The position numbers and the translations under genes were made by a program. A stretch of 64,000 nucleotides of DNA from Escherichia virus TH44. Below are positions 1 through 4,745 of the stretch, piece after piece. Below the pieces are notes generated by a model, which saw only the letters and a program-made list of their open reading frames with translations, searched no databases and was not told where the DNA came from. Positions within the stretch are counted from its first letter, which is position 1. Every line of letters starts with the position of its first letter. The stretch is from sequence record MT446415.1. One strand, 5' to 3'.

Positions 1-236
1 AATGAATAACCAAACTGGTCAGCGAACTTTTTAATTTGATTAACCAAACCGTATGGTAATTTACGATTGTAATCCAGGAGGCGGATTCGTCCGTCCCAAA
101 CTCCCTGCTTGAACTTTGGATTGAAGCGATAGTTTTCAGCTTCGAAGCTGAAGTAATCACGGAGTTCGTAGAAGATTCCATCTTCACATTCAACATGCAC
201 GTGACTAAAATTTAGAAAGTTGATTTTAATATCCAT
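1..236 (-). CDS. uvsW: UvsW helicase, N-terminal part (gene continues past window start)
   Basis: Reverse-strand ATG at 236; translation MDIKINFLNFSHVHVECEDGIFYELRDYFSFEAENYRFNPKFKQGVWDGRIRLLDYNRKLPYGLVNQIKKF resembles recalled T4 UvsW N-terminus; truncated by window edge. Confidence 0.8.
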   Translation of the reverse strand, partial: MDIKINFLNFSHVHVECEDGIFYELRDYFSFEAENYRFNPKFKQGVWDGRIRLLDYNRKLPYGLVNQIKKFADQFGYS

Positions 237-264
237 GATGATTCCAAGGTAATAAATATATCTA

Positions 265-272
265 TATTTATA
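265..272 (-). promoter_or_regulatory. T4-type late promoter TATAAATA upstream of uvsW
   Basis: Plus-strand tatttata = reverse-strand TATAAATA, about 29 nt upstream of uvsW ATG. Confidence 0.5.
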
Positions 273-290
273 CACTAACCGAGGTTCATC

Positions 291-956
291 ATGATTGACA
301 AGAACTACATTGAGGAAATTCGTGTCCTCGAGAAAAAAGAAGCCAAAGAAAAATTAGCTGAATATGCAGCATCACTTGGTGTTGATGTTAAGAAAACAAA
401 AACCTTTGATAATATGTTGGCTGACCTGGAAGCAGGACTTAAAGCATTTGCTGACATGCCTATGCCTGATGATAATGAAGGCCTGAGCATCACTGACCTT
501 ATCGATGCCGATGATGAATTGTCAGGTGCTAAATTTGATGGCGATGAGTCAGCTAAAGAAGAAGCTAAGCTCTTATTTGATGCTCCAACCGAAGCAAAGG
601 TTGAAGTTGTTGAAATCGAAGAACCAGTTGTTTTGGTCGAAGAAGATGTTCCTTTTGTCGAAGAAAAGTTCGAAGCAGCTGTTGCTAAGGTTATCGAATC
701 TGAAAAACCTGTATTTGCTCTGCCAAAAAACTTTAGTCCAAATCTTATGCTTATTGGCAAGAACCCTGGATTCTGTACTGTTCCATGGTGGATTTATCAG
801 TGGATTTCTGAGACTCCGGATTGGAAAGAACGTCCGACTAGCTTCCAACATCCTACTGCACACCAAACACTATTCAGCTTGATTTATTACATCAATCGTA
901 ATGGGTCTGTTCTAATACGAGAAACTCGTAACTCATCTTTTGTCACTTTAAAATAA
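291..956 (+). CDS. inh: Inh-like protein (prohead protease inhibitor position), acidic N-terminal half
   Basis: 221 aa ORF with GAGG RBS; immediately upstream of hoc as in T4; identity assigned by position and composition only. Confidence 0.55.
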   Translation: MIDKNYIEEIRVLEKKEAKEKLAEYAASLGVDVKKTKTFDNMLADLEAGLKAFADMPMPDDNEGLSITDLIDADDELSGAKFDGDESAKEEAKLLFDAPTEAKVEVVEIEEPVVLVEEDVPFVEEKFEAAVAKVIESEKPVFALPKNFSPNLMLIGKNPGFCTVPWWIYQWISETPDWKERPTSFQHPTAHQTLFSLIYYINRNGSVLIRETRNSSFVTLK

Positions 957-965
957 GGGTTTATT

Positions 966-2378
966 ATGGCTTATACCGTAGCTATTGCTCCTTTGGCGGC
1001 TACGGCCGTTATTGGAGCAACAACCAATTTCACTGCAACCGGCTCTGGCGCTGCAGCTGAAGGTGTTGAATCATTTGTATGGACCGTTAATGGCGTTCCT
1101 CAATCTTCTGTGACTGCAGCAATGGCTTATGTCGCTGTTGGTCCAGCAGGCAGTAAGACTATTAAAGTTGTTGCAACCACCACTCCAGCAGAAGGTGAAC
1201 CGGAAACTGCTGAGGCTGAGACAACTTTAACTATCCAGAATAAAACAATGCCTGCTATTACATTGACTTTAGACCCTGCCTCTGTTACTAAAGAAGTGGG
1301 ACAATCTCAAGTTGTTACTGCTAACGTGACGGGTGCTCCTTCTGGTGCAACAATCACTTACGTTTGGAAACGTAACACTAGCGTAATCGCAGGTCAAACC
1401 GGTAAAACTATTACCGTAACCGAAGCGGCGGCAGCAAATTATACATTGAACTGTGAAGTTACTGTTTCTGCACCCGATTATAATAATGGTACTGCAACTA
1501 AAGGAGCTGCGGTATCTTTTGTTAAGAAAACTATGACAGGTGTTTCCGTTACTTTAACGCCCGCCTCAATTAGTACAGAGAAAGACTCACCTGCACAGTT
1601 TAAAGCGGATGTAGTCGGCGCTCCGGTCGGCGTAAAGGCAACTTATTCTTGGAAGAAAAATGGTTCTATTATTCCAGGCGAAAGCAGTAATATTCTTGCT
1701 GTTGATACGTCTACAATAGGTTCTTACTCTATTGAAGTTTCGGTACTCCTAACAGGTGCGGATTATAATGATTTAACCGTTACCAAAACAGGAAGTGTAG
1801 CAATTACTAAAAAGACTATGACAGGTGTTTCCGTTACTTTAACGCCGGCTTCTATTACCGTCTCTGAAGGACTCCCAGCTTCTTTTAAAGCTACCGTAGC
1901 CGGCGCGCCTAGTGGTGCTACTTTTGCATATTCTTGGAAGAAAGACGGTTTAGCTGTTGCTGGCACCACGGATACCCTAGCAATCGATACAAGCGCTGAA
2001 GGTTCACAGGTTATTGAAGTTTCTGTTGTGGTTTCGGCGACTAATTACAACCCAGTGACTGTCAAAAAAACTGGTAATGTAACAGTCACCGCTAAAGTCG
2101 CTCCTGAACCAGAGGGCGAACTACCTTACGTTCATCCGCTACCAGTTCGTAATTCAGCTTATATCTGGTGTGGTTGGTGGGTTATGGATGAAATCCAGAA
2201 AATGACTCTTGAAGGCAAAGACTGGAAAACCGATGACCCTGATAGTGATTTCTATCTCCATCGTTATACTCTTCAAAAAATGATTGCCGATTATCCAGAG
2301 GTCGATGTACAAGAATCCCGTAATGGATATATTATCCATCGTTCGGCTCTTGACGCAGGTATAATTTATTTTTACTGA
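966..2378 (+). CDS. hoc: Hoc head outer capsid decoration protein with extra Ig-like domain
   Basis: 470 aa; C-terminus PEPEGELPYVHPLPVRNSAYIWCGWWVMDEIQKMT...YPEVDVQESRNGYIIH matches recalled T4 Hoc capsid-binding domain; repeated Ig-like modules. Confidence 0.9.
   Translation: MAYTVAIAPLAATAVIGATTNFTATGSGAAAEGVESFVWTVNGVPQSSVTAAMAYVAVGPAGSKTIKVVATTTPAEGEPETAEAETTLTIQNKTMPAITLTLDPASVTKEVGQSQVVTANVTGAPSGATITYVWKRNTSVIAGQTGKTITVTEAAAANYTLNCEVTVSAPDYNNGTATKGAAVSFVKKTMTGVSVTLTPASISTEKDSPAQFKADVVGAPVGVKATYSWKKNGSIIPGESSNILAVDTSTIGSYSIEVSVLLTGADYNDLTVTKTGSVAITKKTMTGVSVTLTPASITVSEGLPASFKATVAGAPSGATFAYSWKKDGLAVAGTTDTLAIDTSAEGSQVIEVSVVVSATNYNPVTVKKTGNVTVTAKVAPEPEGELPYVHPLPVRNSAYIWCGWWVMDEIQKMTLEGKDWKTDDPDSDFYLHRYTLQKMIADYPEVDVQESRNGYIIHRSALDAGIIYFY
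1531..1847 (+). repeat. Internal direct repeat in hoc (Ig-domain duplication, about 285 bp period)
   Basis: 32-bp identical segment actatgacaggtgtttccgttactttaacgcc at 1531-1562 and 1816-1847; protein KKTMTGVSVTLTPASI occurs twice. Confidence 0.8.
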
Positions 2379-2397
2379 TACCTAATTCAAAATAACC

Positions 2398-2411
2398 GGG
2401 CCGCAAGGCCC
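2398..2411 (+). other. GNRA-type hairpin GGGCC-GCAA-GGCCC between hoc and collagen-like gene
   Basis: Perfect 5-bp stem with GCAA loop; not followed by a T-run, so likely an RNA stability/processing hairpin rather than terminator. Confidence 0.4.
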
Positions 2412-2427
2412 TTAATCCGGAGGTTGT

Positions 2428-4458
2428 ATGAGTGTAGAAGTAATTTTGGTAACTAAGTACACTATACCTGAACTTATCCAAGCCGTTAATGAAAAACAAA
2501 CGGTTGGATATTTTCCTGCTTGTGGTGTTCTTTATTTTAATAATAGATTTACCCAATTAATGACCTTAGACACAAATGCTACAGAAGTTCCATCAGCACC
2601 TTATACCATAATAGCCGAACAAAACGGTGTTTTATGGGCGGAAGCCGCTTCAGCTTTTGTGGATGCAAATCCGACAGCAGAATGCTTATCACCTGTAGAA
2701 TATATAGATTCGCTATACATGCAAGCTTATGGGGACGCAAGGGCCGCATCCGGTGGCGGTTCGACGGGGCCTAAAGGTGATACCGGTCCAATGGGTCCAA
2801 TGGGTCCTCAAGGTATTCAAGGGCCAATAGGTCCAGAAGGTCCCCAAGGTTTAAAAGGAGAAAAAGGTGATACTGGTCCTCAAGGTCCTCAAGGTCCACA
2901 GGGAGTAAAGGGAGACACAGGAGCAACCGGTTTAACTGGGGCTGAAGGGCCACAAGGACCTATAGGTTTAACGGGCCCTAGTGGAGCCCAGGGTGTTAAA
3001 GGCGATACAGGTCCTCAAGGACCCCAGGGTTTGAAGGGTGAAAAAGGTGATACCGGACCGCAAGGCCCACAAGGAGAACCAGGCACCGGCAATGGCGGTC
3101 TGAAATGGTATACAGAAGATGCTGGTAAAACTTATCCTATTATAGATGTGGACCCAAATTTATCACAAATAGGAATGGGTAATCCAGATGGTGGATACGT
3201 CCAATTAAAATTTATGACCGGAGGCAATAACGCTGGACATATAATGGCTGATGATGGGACCATGACGTTATGGAAAACCCAGCAAAGCACACTCAATCTT
3301 TCGGATAACTCGGCAGCACTGCATAACCATGCCAACGTGGAACTTGCCAATGCTGACATGACGCTTAACATGGATGGGCGTGACTTGACTGTTAGTGATG
3401 TGGATAGTATTCGTCTCCAGCTCAATGCGGACAGAAGCGCTCTGGTGGCGCCGGCGGACGTTGCAAACGTGACAGTATCCACTGAAGGCACTGCACAGGT
3501 CATGGCTAATACTTACATCCAACTGAATGCAGTAAACAACAGGTCTATAATTCAGCTAGACGAATCCGCTATCACCACAAGGTCAGGTCGCTCAAACACT
3601 GAACTCACAGATGCTACATACCGTGCCAGTGCGCCGGACTTAGACGGCCGAATTTCGTTGACTCTGGGTCCGCATGCAAAGTTCCTGGCTACACCTACCA
3701 ATACTGCAATCAATTTTAGTAAAAGTACTGTAACAACCAGAATGCTCATGGATAGTACCGGGATAAACATTGAAACATTAACCGAGGCACCTGTGTTTAT
3801 ACGGAATGTCGATAAGGTGGTTTATACGGCTGATAAAGGTGTGGCTACCATTGGACGGGGTGATTATACACAGGTCGTTGACCAAACTGGGGTAGTAATC
3901 ACTACGGGTGCAGGTAATGTAAGCACTCAAAATGCCACTGGATTTATTAAAGACACTGCCGGCGAGTATCAGTACCGCATCGACAACAAATTGGTATTCT
4001 TCTCTAGTGGGGACATTACAAGAATTAACACAGATGCTTGTGGTGTTGAACTTGATAATGGTTCAGGCATTGCTTATAATAGTGGCACAGGCGAACATAC
4101 TTTTCTTGGCGGTAACGTAGCCCCAGGTGCGGCCAATATAAGTTTAGGTGGAGCTGTTGCTCCGTGGGCTTCAATTTATCTGGATAGTTCTACCCCACGT
4201 GTAATTCAGACCAACACGGCCCACGCGGAAGTCCCAGCTGCTACAATAGCTAAGATGGCTACACTTGTCCCACAAGCTCTGAACACAGCATCCGGTGGCT
4301 TCACAATGGGATATGTTTACGAGGATGTGATTGCAGCTTTAGGCGCCGTCGATGCTGAACTCTACGGGCTTGCATGGATGGAAGGCGGGAAGAAGGTCAT
4401 TAACCCTGTTGCAATACTTGCTATGGAGGCGTTATACGTTCGTAGTAAATTAGTCTAA
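2428..4458 (+). CDS. Collagen-like repeat protein (fibre-like), about 36 G-X-Y triplets plus large C-terminal domain
   Basis: 676 aa ORF with GGAGG RBS; residues about 112-225 are uninterrupted GPQGPQG/GDTGP Gly-X-Y repeats; inserted between hoc and rnlB-side small genes. Confidence 0.8.
   Translation: MSVEVILVTKYTIPELIQAVNEKQTVGYFPACGVLYFNNRFTQLMTLDTNATEVPSAPYTIIAEQNGVLWAEAASAFVDANPTAECLSPVEYIDSLYMQAYGDARAASGGGSTGPKGDTGPMGPMGPQGIQGPIGPEGPQGLKGEKGDTGPQGPQGPQGVKGDTGATGLTGAEGPQGPIGLTGPSGAQGVKGDTGPQGPQGLKGEKGDTGPQGPQGEPGTGNGGLKWYTEDAGKTYPIIDVDPNLSQIGMGNPDGGYVQLKFMTGGNNAGHIMADDGTMTLWKTQQSTLNLSDNSAALHNHANVELANADMTLNMDGRDLTVSDVDSIRLQLNADRSALVAPADVANVTVSTEGTAQVMANTYIQLNAVNNRSIIQLDESAITTRSGRSNTELTDATYRASAPDLDGRISLTLGPHAKFLATPTNTAINFSKSTVTTRMLMDSTGINIETLTEAPVFIRNVDKVVYTADKGVATIGRGDYTQVVDQTGVVITTGAGNVSTQNATGFIKDTAGEYQYRIDNKLVFFSSGDITRINTDACGVELDNGSGIAYNSGTGEHTFLGGNVAPGAANISLGGAVAPWASIYLDSSTPRVIQTNTAHAEVPAATIAKMATLVPQALNTASGGFTMGYVYEDVIAALGAVDAELYGLAWMEGGKKVINPVAILAMEALYVRSKLV
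2761..3095 (+). repeat. Collagen-type triplet (G-X-Y) coding repeat
   Basis: ggtcctcaaggtcc-type 9-bp periodic units encoding GPQ/GDT/GEK triplets. Confidence 0.8.
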
Positions 4459-4465
4459 AAAAAAA

Positions 4466-4493
4466 TGGGAGAGCGAAAGCTCTCCCATTTTTA
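4466..4493 (+). terminator. Rho-independent terminator after collagen-like gene
   Basis: TGGGAGAGC-GAAA-GCTCTCCCA stem-loop followed by TTTTT. Confidence 0.8.
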
Positions 4494-4494
4494 T

Positions 4495-4524
4495 GTTTAC
4501 AAGTTAAAAATTCCATGTTAAGAT
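4495..4524 (+). promoter_or_regulatory. Candidate sigma70-type early promoter (-35 GTTTAC, -10 TAAGAT)
   Basis: GTTTAC at 4495-4500, 18-nt spacer, TAAGAT at 4519-4524, upstream of ORF at 4542. Confidence 0.4.
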
Positions 4525-4541
4525 AGCTTCACTAACTCAAC

Positions 4542-4745
4542 ATGAGAATCATTATGGATAAGGTTAAAGTACATTTTTTACACGAATCTGGTATGACATT
4601 TATTGAAATCGCCAAGGTACTAGGCGGGACTGCTAAAGAGATGGCAAAGGCCTGGGTTGATGTAGAACAAGCCAAAGCTAAATTTAAAGCGAAAGAAAAG
4701 ATTGTTTATCGTAAACGTTTGAATAACAAAAAGGTGAAGAAATGA
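4542..4745 (+). CDS. Hypothetical small protein (T4 24.3 position)
   Basis: 67 aa ORF downstream of candidate promoter; positional analogue between hoc and rnlB. Confidence 0.55.
   Translation: MRIIMDKVKVHFLHESGMTFIEIAKVLGGTAKEMAKAWVDVEQAKAKFKAKEKIVYRKRLNNKKVKK

Follow-up and report, generated by a model that had tools for sequence, protein, structure and literature searches.

Hoc is a capsid fibre that has been implicated in the adherence of phages to mucus and is much used as a display platform. Published Hocs range from one to ten Ig modules: the Hoc of Serratia phage Muldoon has 10 (PMC10385173), PNJ-9 represents a two-Ig-domain type (PMC11853027), and a four-Ig Hoc of 468 aa has already been described (PMC13435897). 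The T4 protein (PDB 5vf3, 8t1x; PMC10385173) combines three N-terminal Ig-like modules with a C-terminal capsid-binding domain in 376 aa, and its fibre measures 180 Å in length. Among the titles and abstracts listed in our literature search, none dealt with module gain or loss in hoc, and the combination of Hoc with Gaprivervirus returned one irrelevant paper. Two general mechanisms are of note: in T4-type phages, DNA is deleted or duplicated between short direct repeats, and tandem protein-domain repeats undergo concerted evolution.

The DNA considered here (the window) is a stretch of 64,000 nucleotides from Escherichia virus TH44 (MT446415.1) that is 95–96% identical over 20 kb to Gaprivervirus genomes; the nearest genome overall is that of MN01, which has a four-module hoc. 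The plus-strand open reading frame at 966–2378, listed as 470 aa plus stop, had been called hoc in an initial annotation, and the homology searches agree. Its product matches PHROG 1149 ("Hoc-like head decoration") with E=1.7e-127 and T4 Hoc (PDB 5vf3_Z) with E=2e-126, the query being covered by two overlapping alignments to the T4 protein. Upstream, the gene adjoins conserved inh, which encodes the inhibitor of prohead protease (291–956, plus strand; PHROG 1051, E=8.9e-90). The order uvsW-inh-hoc, which is the position of hoc in T4, is also found in MN01, VR20, SP18, and JS10. The MN01 homologue (Gaprivervirus) is 93.6% identical to the 470-aa Hoc in amino acid sequence, and no database protein found exceeds 94% identity to this allele. 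More than 600 records match the query over most of its length. A collagen-like protein encoded downstream (2428–4458) has no similarity to a Hoc-type capsid-binding domain (best E=0.59). We read the open reading frame as hoc from a T4-like phage of the genus Gaprivervirus, the product of which would form a capsid-surface fibre consisting of four Ig-like modules of 91–95 residues (I-II-III-IV) ahead of a conserved C-terminal domain. The probability that we attach to this reading, about 0.75, is a joint one for the whole of our preferred explanation.

The AF2 model contains four β-sandwich Ig-like modules, with a block-mean pLDDT of 82–97 over aa 1–370, and a C-terminal domain of low confidence (pLDDT 46–68). 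The best Foldseek matches are four-Ig-domain proteins, RB49 Hoc (3shs), and the C-domain of T4 Hoc (8t1x). Pfam Ig_3 and I-set are above their cut-offs, with matches at aa 289–376. The lengths given in the initial annotation, 470 aa against 376 in T4, hold, and so does its statement that this Hoc carries an extra Ig-like domain: the AF2 model, the Foldseek matches, and the alignment to T4 give four modules against three.

All five parts of the protein are encoded on the plus strand. Module 1 (966–1238; aa 1–91, type I) is a β-sandwich in the AF2 model with a block-mean pLDDT of 82–93; it groups with domain 1 of T4 Hoc in the module tree and is present in 17 of the 17 phages sampled. Module 2 (1239–1523; aa 92–186, type II), as delimited by the module split, begins NKTMPAITLTLDPASV. 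It is 35–38% identical to modules 3 and 4 in amino acid sequence (BLASTP against module 3: E=2e-20, 35% identity), and the type II clade has a bootstrap of 100. Module 3 (1524–1808; aa 187–281, type III) is the "extra" module: its clade likewise has a bootstrap of 100, and the protein alignment indicates that it is missing from the three-module Hocs of VR20, PSD2001, P896, UPEC01, and ECML-359. Module 4 (1809–2093; aa 282–376, type IV) is the counterpart of T4 Hoc domain 3, to which it is 58.5% identical in amino acid sequence. The module tree was built from 17 hoc genes. Some of its deep-node supports are unusable owing to rooting, and sister pairs are weak (49.5–69.5); for the modules of this gene we rely only on the support of the type II and type III clades.

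The domain for capsid binding at the C-terminus (2094–2375; aa 377–470) aligns to about residues 281–376 of T4 Hoc and is near-identical to 5vf3_Z over the last 95 aa, with a phmmer alignment that reaches the final residue. Foldseek compares it with 8t1x_X at 82% identity and a TMt of 0.71, and PHROG 21694, 14282, and 11091 match aa 389–470. By homology with T4, the domain is predicted to dock at the center of each hexamer of the major capsid protein, gp23. From the conservation of this domain only, we would also expect the mature capsid to carry one Hoc monomer per gp23 hexamer and growth not to require Hoc.

The four-module architecture is not special to this phage and is already known in related phages. 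The same plan (I-II-III-IV-C, 468–473 aa) is found in Gaprivervirus MN01, in Dhakavirus IME341, ABTNLsp5, and JS10, and in Jiaodavirus PMBT63 and KP13MC5-5 (PMC13435897); the PMBT63 Hoc (cluster P0023) is 75% identical to the protein of the window. In the Jiaodavirus Hocs, unlike here, both distal modules are of type IV, are 80% identical to each other, and pair at a bootstrap of 84.5, which suggests that their duplication was a separate one or that homogenisation has been stronger in that genus. T4 domain 3 resembles module III (55% aa identity) as well as module IV, whereas T4 domain 2 is only 30% identical to module II. Shorter and longer Hocs belong to the same family and differ in module count. 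They include the two-module proteins of SP18 and QL01 (282 aa), the 280-aa protein of JD18, and five-module metagenomic Hocs of 563–565 aa; gain and loss among them proceed in units of about 95 aa, with boundaries at an (N/K)KTM motif. Module number is polymorphic within four genera, in which Hoc lengths are 282, 377, and 470–472 aa (Gaprivervirus), 282, 439, and 469–473 aa (Dhakavirus), 280 and 468 aa (Jiaodavirus), and 376 and 472 aa (Tequatrovirus).

The feature that distinguishes the allele is an exact repeat. The 32-mer ACTATGACAGGTGTTTCCGTTACTTTAACGCC occurs twice on the plus strand of the window, at 1530–1561 and 1815–1846, with a spacing of 285 bp, or 95 codons. No further match with up to three mismatches exists within the 64 kb, and none is expected by chance (100 shuffles). 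The copies cover codons 3–13 of module 3 (T M T G V S V T L T P) and codons 3–13 of module 4, and the peptide KKTMTGVSVTLTPASI accordingly appears twice in Hoc, at aa 187–202 and 282–297. The repeat and its duplicated peptide are thus as first annotated, except that the span given there, 1531–1847, is off by one base. Structurally, the repeat encodes the linker and the first β-strand of modules III and IV, a sequence conserved in all relatives. The longest exact run between modules III and IV is 32 nt here, as compared with 15–24 nt in the other four-module genes sampled from Gaprivervirus and Dhakavirus, five in number, and this is the only sampled allele in which the two module starts are identical over 32 nt and 16 aa. 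An assembly artefact was considered as the source of the repeat and rejected, as each of the two modules has orthologues and 38% of the bases differ between them. A promoter and terminator scan of 200–4700 found nothing in or beside the two copies that explains the nucleotide conservation; weak terminator-like matches inside hoc (1902–1919) are in the range of chance (7 found against 3.7 ± 1.8 expected).

Several observations argue that the patch became fully identical by a local event. In the patch, modules III and IV use identical codons at 9 of 9 degenerate positions; over the remainder of the module they do so at 18 of 43 (Fisher p=0.0018). The codons that flank the patch encode the same conserved peptide in both modules and differ synonymously (AAG AAA versus AAA AAG on one side, CCC GCC TCA versus CCG GCT TCT on the other). 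Codon 5 of module III is ACA (Thr) in this phage, whereas the five other module IIIs all have TCG or TCA (Ser); in module IV, ACA is found in the window phage, MN01, and JS10. This change from Ser to Thr involves two bases, is unique to this phage among the six genomes, and makes module III match module IV. In addition, codon 8 is TCC in both copies here, and TCT in both copies of MN01, the closest genome. From these six genomes only, we infer that a short gene-conversion tract, directed from module IV to module III, probably homogenised the patch in this phage. Instead of conversion within the gene, recombination with a hoc allele outside the sample could be the source of the same pattern.

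The identity might instead reflect purifying selection on the linker and first-strand peptide, together with codon preference and chance, and no conversion at all. Indeed, in all relatives modules III and IV open with the conserved peptide KKTM.GVSVTL.P.SI, and the patch nucleotides are nearly identical between the modules in several of them, the exact run being 24 nt in ABTNLsp5 and 18 nt in MN01. Conservation of a similar kind arises elsewhere in the gene without any need for conversion: the stretch that encodes the YSWKK core strand of module 3 (1644–1665, plus strand) is 91% identical to 1929–1950 in module 4, and in each of the six four-module genes from Gaprivervirus and Dhakavirus, modules 3 and 4 agree at 100% of the 15-nt bin over TAT TCT TGG AAG AAA. 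Moreover, third-position identity in the patch is raised in most four-module genes (0.54–0.92 versus 0.37–0.47) but not in JS10 (0.46 versus 0.48), so that ordinary constraint may account for some of the conservation at the nucleotide level. Constraint of this kind fits poorly, however, with synonymous choices that agree at every degenerate codon of the patch and at 42% elsewhere (p about 0.002), with a two-base replacement at codon 5 that is found in this phage only and copies the module IV state, and with the TCC that both copies share at codon 8 against TCT in both copies of MN01. In our opinion, an origin of the repeat without conversion is unlikely.

Besides its probable conversion, the patch has properties of a crossover site. 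With exactly one in-frame module between them, the two copies can act as substrates of homologous or slipped recombination: crossing over from one copy to the other would remove module III and leave a 375-aa, three-module Hoc of the VR20 kind, and the reciprocal product would gain a module. Junctions in relatives, from which this role is deduced, fit it. The VR20 junction consists of the ABTNLsp5 module III start (AAG AAA ACT ATG TCG), the shared 24 nt, and the ABTNLsp5 module IV continuation (GCT TCT ATT ACT GTC), and in the protein alignment VR20 is without exactly 95 aa. The five-module proteins P0003–P0006 have a chimeric boundary in which KKTMSGVSVTL is joined to SPTSVSKE. SP18, which is without exactly 190 aa, and QL01 have a different junction, which lies not at the 32-bp patch but at a microhomology of only 5 nt (AAAAC) that the start of module II shares with that of the last module. 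The direction of change could be loss from four modules to three, or re-acquisition of module III from another phage, a choice that junctions alone cannot prove. As in the deletion and duplication known between short direct repeats, repeats flank an in-frame unit and hybrid junctions are present in relatives; here, in contrast, fixed differences between phages are all that is seen of the events.

A further explanation concerns the origin of module III itself, which recombination during co-infection may recently have distributed among phages of Gaprivervirus and Dhakavirus, the conserved boundary patches being the crossover points; the repeat would then be a footprint of import into a three-module ancestor. 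Between phages, module III has diverged less than any other module: it is 91–95% identical in nucleotides even to that of JS10 (module I 56%, module II 79%), and relative to JS10 the window has a dS of 0.14 in module III and of 0.39 in module IV. The gene is also strongly mosaic, with a nearest relative that differs module by module, which blurs tree-based counts of events, and close genome relatives (95–96% over 20 kb) have three-module genes. MN01, however, is the nearest genome overall and already has four modules, and stronger purifying selection on module III would also explain its low divergence. The mismatch profiles in 45-nt bins, taken between the window and each four-module relative, are patchy and mosaic and have no sharp steps at 1524 or 1809, the module boundaries, a pattern compatible with import but no support for it. 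We consider import of a cassette very unlikely as the explanation of the repeat; it is compatible with, and does not exclude, the conversion and crossover that we favor.

The age of the modules bears on the remaining alternative. Modules 3 and 4 are demonstrably homologous (BLASTP E=2e-33, 57% identity), and their self-similarity spans whole modules, although weakly: the best 280-nt window at offset 285 is 58% identical, as compared with about 40% at unrelated offsets. Over 95 codons the two are 57% identical in amino acids and 62% in nucleotides; pS is 0.66, which is saturated, and dS is about 1.6. Per-bin identity falls to 33–60% beyond the first 45 nt. Orthologues of module III in MN01, IME341, ABTNLsp5, vB_EcoM_005, and JS10 are 91–95% identical to it in nucleotides, and the six-phage clade has a bootstrap of 100. 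Judging by these distances, modules III and IV are evidently old paralogues in an array that grew by internal duplication at some time, and the I-II-III-IV architecture is common to several Gaprivervirus and Dhakavirus phages rather than created in this lineage. The internal duplication proposed in the initial annotation therefore stands as paralogy but not as a recent event, and the repeat, which had been taken as the trace of that event, is better described as a locally homogenised patch at a module boundary. We also rejected a three-module ancestor in which module III was made de novo here, module III being as far from module IV as T4 domain 3 is (55–58% aa identity). A recent tandem duplication, in which one 285-bp Ig module was copied lately in this lineage with the 32-bp identity as its remainder, has an exact repeat spaced by one module and the homology of the modules in its favor and is nevertheless scarcely tenable, since the copies are about 55–60% identical in DNA outside the patch with saturated synonymous sites, uniform decay cannot leave 32 perfect bases beside codons that already differ synonymously, and module III, present in five other phages of two genera, is neither lineage-specific nor an independent copy of module IV in each of them.

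As to architecture, the locus adds little, because four-Ig Hocs are common and described; what is new is an allele of a known kind. It does provide a clean, small example of array change, in which a conserved boundary patch is homogenised to 32 identical bases in this phage and relatives have lost or gained 95 codons in frame. A stronger reading, which we regard as doubtful, is that the patch reflects more than constraint on the protein and is a maintained recombination "joint", with hoc a contingency-like locus, where unequal crossovers would continually yield in-frame variants of 2 to 5+ modules. The VR20 and five-module junctions in the patch, the polymorphism in four genera, and the raised third-position identity in most genomes permit it. 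If it were true, populations would carry standing variation in the length and adhesion specificity of the capsid fibre, and this phage, with its perfect 32-bp repeat, would be particularly liable to switch.

By extension from published work on the Hocs of T4, PNJ-6, PNJ-9, and PMBT63, the fibre should be longer by one Ig module, and the extra module should add surface for weak adhesive contacts, for example with mucin glycans or the surfaces of bacteria. How many Ig-like modules a Hoc fibre has, and of which type, probably tunes its length and binding. Through crossover at the patch, stocks of this phage may segregate three-module hoc variants, which would matter for phage therapy and display applications that assume a fixed Hoc.

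The window Hoc consists of four Ig-like modules followed by the Hoc capsid-binding domain. The 470-aa product of the ORF at 966–2378 (plus strand) matches PHROG 1149, "Hoc-like head decoration" (E=1.7e-127), as well as the PDB entry for T4 Hoc (5vf3_Z; E=2e-126); inh, the gene for the prohead-protease inhibitor, lies upstream at 291–956. Modules I (aa 1–91, nt 966–1238), II (aa 92–186, nt 1239–1523), III (aa 187–281, nt 1524–1808) and IV (aa 282–376, nt 1809–2093) precede the capsid-binding domain (aa 377–470, nt 2094–2375), all on the plus strand, and an (N/K)KTM motif is present at every module boundary. Against T4 Hoc, the HMMER alignment splits into two overlapping segments (query 1–173 to T4 1–173, query 196–470 to T4 100–375), a pattern diagnostic of one additional module. 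An AlphaFold2 model built with 25 homologues as input (mean pLDDT 85.6; block means 82–97 over residues 1–370; 291 residues at 90 or above) shows four successive β-sandwich modules and then a small α/β domain. Its top Foldseek matches in the PDB are four-Ig-domain proteins, namely DCC and the N-terminal four Ig domains of Dscam1. Both the model and the split alignment thus bear out the extra Ig-like module, relative to T4 Hoc, that the initial annotation had proposed.

That annotation attributed the module to a recent duplication, citing an exact 32-bp repeat and a duplicated peptide. Internal duplication is indeed the ultimate origin of the module, modules III and IV being homologous along their whole length (BLASTP E=2e-33, 57% identity), with module II more distant (35%, E=2e-20). 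It is the recency that does not hold. Modules III and IV are 62% identical in nucleotide sequence; the proportion of synonymous differences is 0.66 and dS about 1.6, a saturated value even when the identical patch is counted in. At the amino acid level, the distance between III and IV (57%) is about that of either module from T4 domain 3 (55% and 58.5%, respectively). When the modules of 17 phages were all placed in one tree, the window module III did not pair with its own module IV; it fell into a clade with the module IIIs of MN01, IME341, ABTNLsp5, vB_EcoM_005 and JS10 (bootstrap 100; 91–95% nucleotide identity), which spans two genera. Together, this divergence and the two-genus clade place the duplication before the split of Gaprivervirus and Dhakavirus. 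Modules III and IV are old paralogues, and the extra module is neither recent nor specific to the window phage, nor is it what the 32-bp repeat records.

The repeat itself is real, although the coordinates given in the annotation are off by one base: the 32-mer ACTATGACAGGTGTTTCCGTTACTTTAACGCC occurs exactly twice, at 1530–1561 and 1815–1846, spaced 285 bp (95 codons) apart. No further copy was found in the 64-kb window with up to 3 mismatches allowed, and none in shuffles. The duplicated peptide, KKTMTGVSVTLTPASI, occupies aa 187–202 and 282–297, at the starts of modules III and IV. Codon-by-codon comparison of the two copies of this conserved 16-residue peptide shows different codons at its left end (AAG AAA versus AAA AAG) and at its right end (CCC GCC TCA versus CCG GCT TCT), with the 32 bases between them identical. 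Among codons that specify the same residue in modules III and IV and have synonymous alternatives, the same codon is used in 9 of 9 cases within this boundary patch versus 18 of 43 elsewhere (Fisher p=0.0018). At codon 5, module III has ACA (Thr) in the window phage only, the five other module IIIs having TCG or TCA (Ser); ACA is the module IV codon at this position in the window, MN01 and JS10. Both window copies have TCC as codon 8, and both MN01 copies have TCT.

Because a two-base replacement equalises the paralogues inside a sharply bounded identical tract, the 32-bp identity looks like the footprint that short-tract gene conversion would leave, with module IV as donor and module III as recipient. 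From the six genomes compared, we infer a putative tract of at least 10 nt that does not exceed the 32-nt exact run. Ordinary constraint is a live rival explanation for part of the patch conservation: the patch is similar, if not identical, in the five other four-module genes of Gaprivervirus and Dhakavirus (longest exact runs 15–24 nt), and third-position identity over the first 13 codons, mostly above that of the rest of the module in four-module genes, is not raised in JS10.

Hoc length is polymorphic inside each of four genera: 282 aa (SP18), 377 aa (VR20, PSD2001, P896, UPEC01, ECML-359) and 470–472 aa (window, MN01) in Gaprivervirus; 282 aa (QL01), 439 aa (vB_EcoM_005) and 469–473 aa (JS10, IME341, ABTNLsp5) in Dhakavirus; 280 aa (JD18) and 468 aa (KP13MC5-5) in Jiaodavirus; and 376 aa (T4) and 472 aa (RB27) in Tequatrovirus. 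The 439-aa form (nt 601–1920 of its locus) retains four modules, but an internal deletion has taken about 31 aa out of the C-terminal domain, including a Trp-rich stretch (SAYIWCGWWVMDEIQKMT...) that all other Hocs conserve; this protein may have lost capsid binding, or the record may contain an assembly error.

In alignment, the residues missing from VR20 are precisely the 95 of module III, and those missing from SP18 are precisely modules II and III. The VR20 junction begins as the module III start of ABTNLsp5 (AAG AAA ACT ATG TCG), passes through 24 nt common to both patches and continues as ABTNLsp5 module IV (GCT TCT ATT ACT GTC). Among the sampled four-module relatives of VR20, ABTNLsp5 is the nearest for modules I and IV and is close for module II, and the junction is as expected for a crossover within the patch. 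The type switch lies between codons 5 and 12 in UPEC01 and ECML-359 and between codons 2 and 5 in PSD2001 and P896, so more than one crossover position is represented. The two-module junction of SP18 and QL01 has only a 5-nt microhomology (AAAAC). Four Hoc clusters from metagenomic and Logan contigs (P0003–P0006, 563–565 aa) have five modules, I-II-II'-IV-IV, before the C-terminal domain; their second module II opens with a chimeric boundary, KKTMSGVSVTL joined to SPTSVSKE, which by its sequence would be the reciprocal kind of crossover product. In P0003, Jiaodavirus-like Ig modules are joined to a C-terminal domain ending like those of T4 and RB27 (…GIIYTYP), a composition that points to inter-genus mosaicism. 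In RB27 (hoc at 301–1719 of its locus), T4-type domain 2 was duplicated independently, representing a separate module gain in Tequatrovirus; the copies are 80% identical in amino acid sequence, and both begin with KTQTTTLAVTPASP. KP13MC5-5 has two type IV modules, also 80% identical. These separate duplications, together with the boundary junctions, indicate that growth and shrinkage of the array at module boundaries is recurrent.

Since a diverged module III could not be made de novo, any three-module gene nested among four-module alleles must have arisen by deletion or been the recipient in a later re-import. Of all modules, III has diverged least between phages (dS to JS10 of 0.14 versus 0.39 for module IV), and hoc is strongly mosaic, its nearest relative changing from module to module; horizontal spread of module III is thus a reasonable rival explanation in part. 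The hoc modules are 78–98% identical in nucleotide sequence to those of Gaprivervirus relatives, compared with 95–96% for the first 20 kb of the window against genomes such as MN01, PSD2001 and VR20. Against the compared loci (L001–L010, L015 and L016), divergence and mosaicism of hoc are far above those of its surroundings. From 2316 on, its 3' end is sharply unlike those of MN01, IME341 and ABTNLsp5 and less unlike that of JS10.

Directly 3' of hoc lies a gene for a 676-aa collagen-like protein (2428–4458, plus strand) with a long G-X-Y tract. Pfam Collagen matches it at about aa 111–237 (E=9.6e-17), its PHROG "tail fiber" matches fall wholly or largely inside the collagen part, and a search of this protein for similarity to the Hoc capsid-binding domain found none. 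The gap between hoc and 24.3 is a variable insertion slot, because MN01 also has a gene there and VR20 and SP18 have none, with 24.3, 24.2 and rnlB coming straight after hoc. Dhakavirus genomes carry, just downstream of hoc and on the opposite strand, a second gene annotated "hoc / outer capsid protein Hoc I" (~286 aa; minus strand, 2661–3521 in the JS10 locus and 1755–2003 in that of ABTNLsp5), which adjoins a tail-fiber-like gene; in the window, this slot is occupied by the collagen-like gene. A perfect GC-rich hairpin (GGGCC-GCAA-GGCCC, 2398–2411) lies 20 nt past the hoc stop, immediately ahead of the RBS for the collagen-like protein; it is flagged terminator-like on the minus strand only, owing to a T-run on that side.

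The four-module architecture is already known. Hoc has been described as a conserved C-terminal domain with strings of variable Ig-like domains, numbering one in phage PG7 and two and ten in the short and long Hocs of Muldoon (Fokine et al., PMC10385173), and a Hoc with only two was characterised by Fu et al. 2024 (PMC11853027). The four-Ig Hoc of PMBT63 (Ewertz et al., PMC13435897) is 75% identical to the window protein. Of the best 120 protein clusters, 88 have four-module length (467–472 aa); boundary-motif parsing of these 120 yields 84 four-module architectures, six with the I-II-III-IV-C order of the window. New in the window allele are only its identity of at most 94% to any database protein found and the perfectly homogenised boundary repeat. 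Our literature search found no published account of a boundary-patch crossover mechanism for hoc; such crossover is in itself a standard mechanism.

By homology with T4, the C-terminal domain would dock at the centre of gp23 hexamers, with the Ig string projecting as a fibre (PMC10385173). Mucin glycans are ligands of Hoc modules in T4-like phages, the responsible modules differing by phage (PMC11853027; PMC13435897). By analogy, a fourth module would give a longer fibre and added weakly adhesive surface. A perfect 32-bp direct repeat around one in-frame module should allow recombination or slippage in the window phage, with either a five-module gene or a three-module hoc (375 aa; 1128 bp including the stop codon) as the product. 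Recombination in T4 works best when homology reaches about 50 bp or more, but deletions between far shorter direct repeats are well documented. The junctions of relatives fit crossovers inside the patch. That the patch is a maintained recombination joint, making hoc a module-number switching locus, is in our opinion improbable, at roughly one chance in five.
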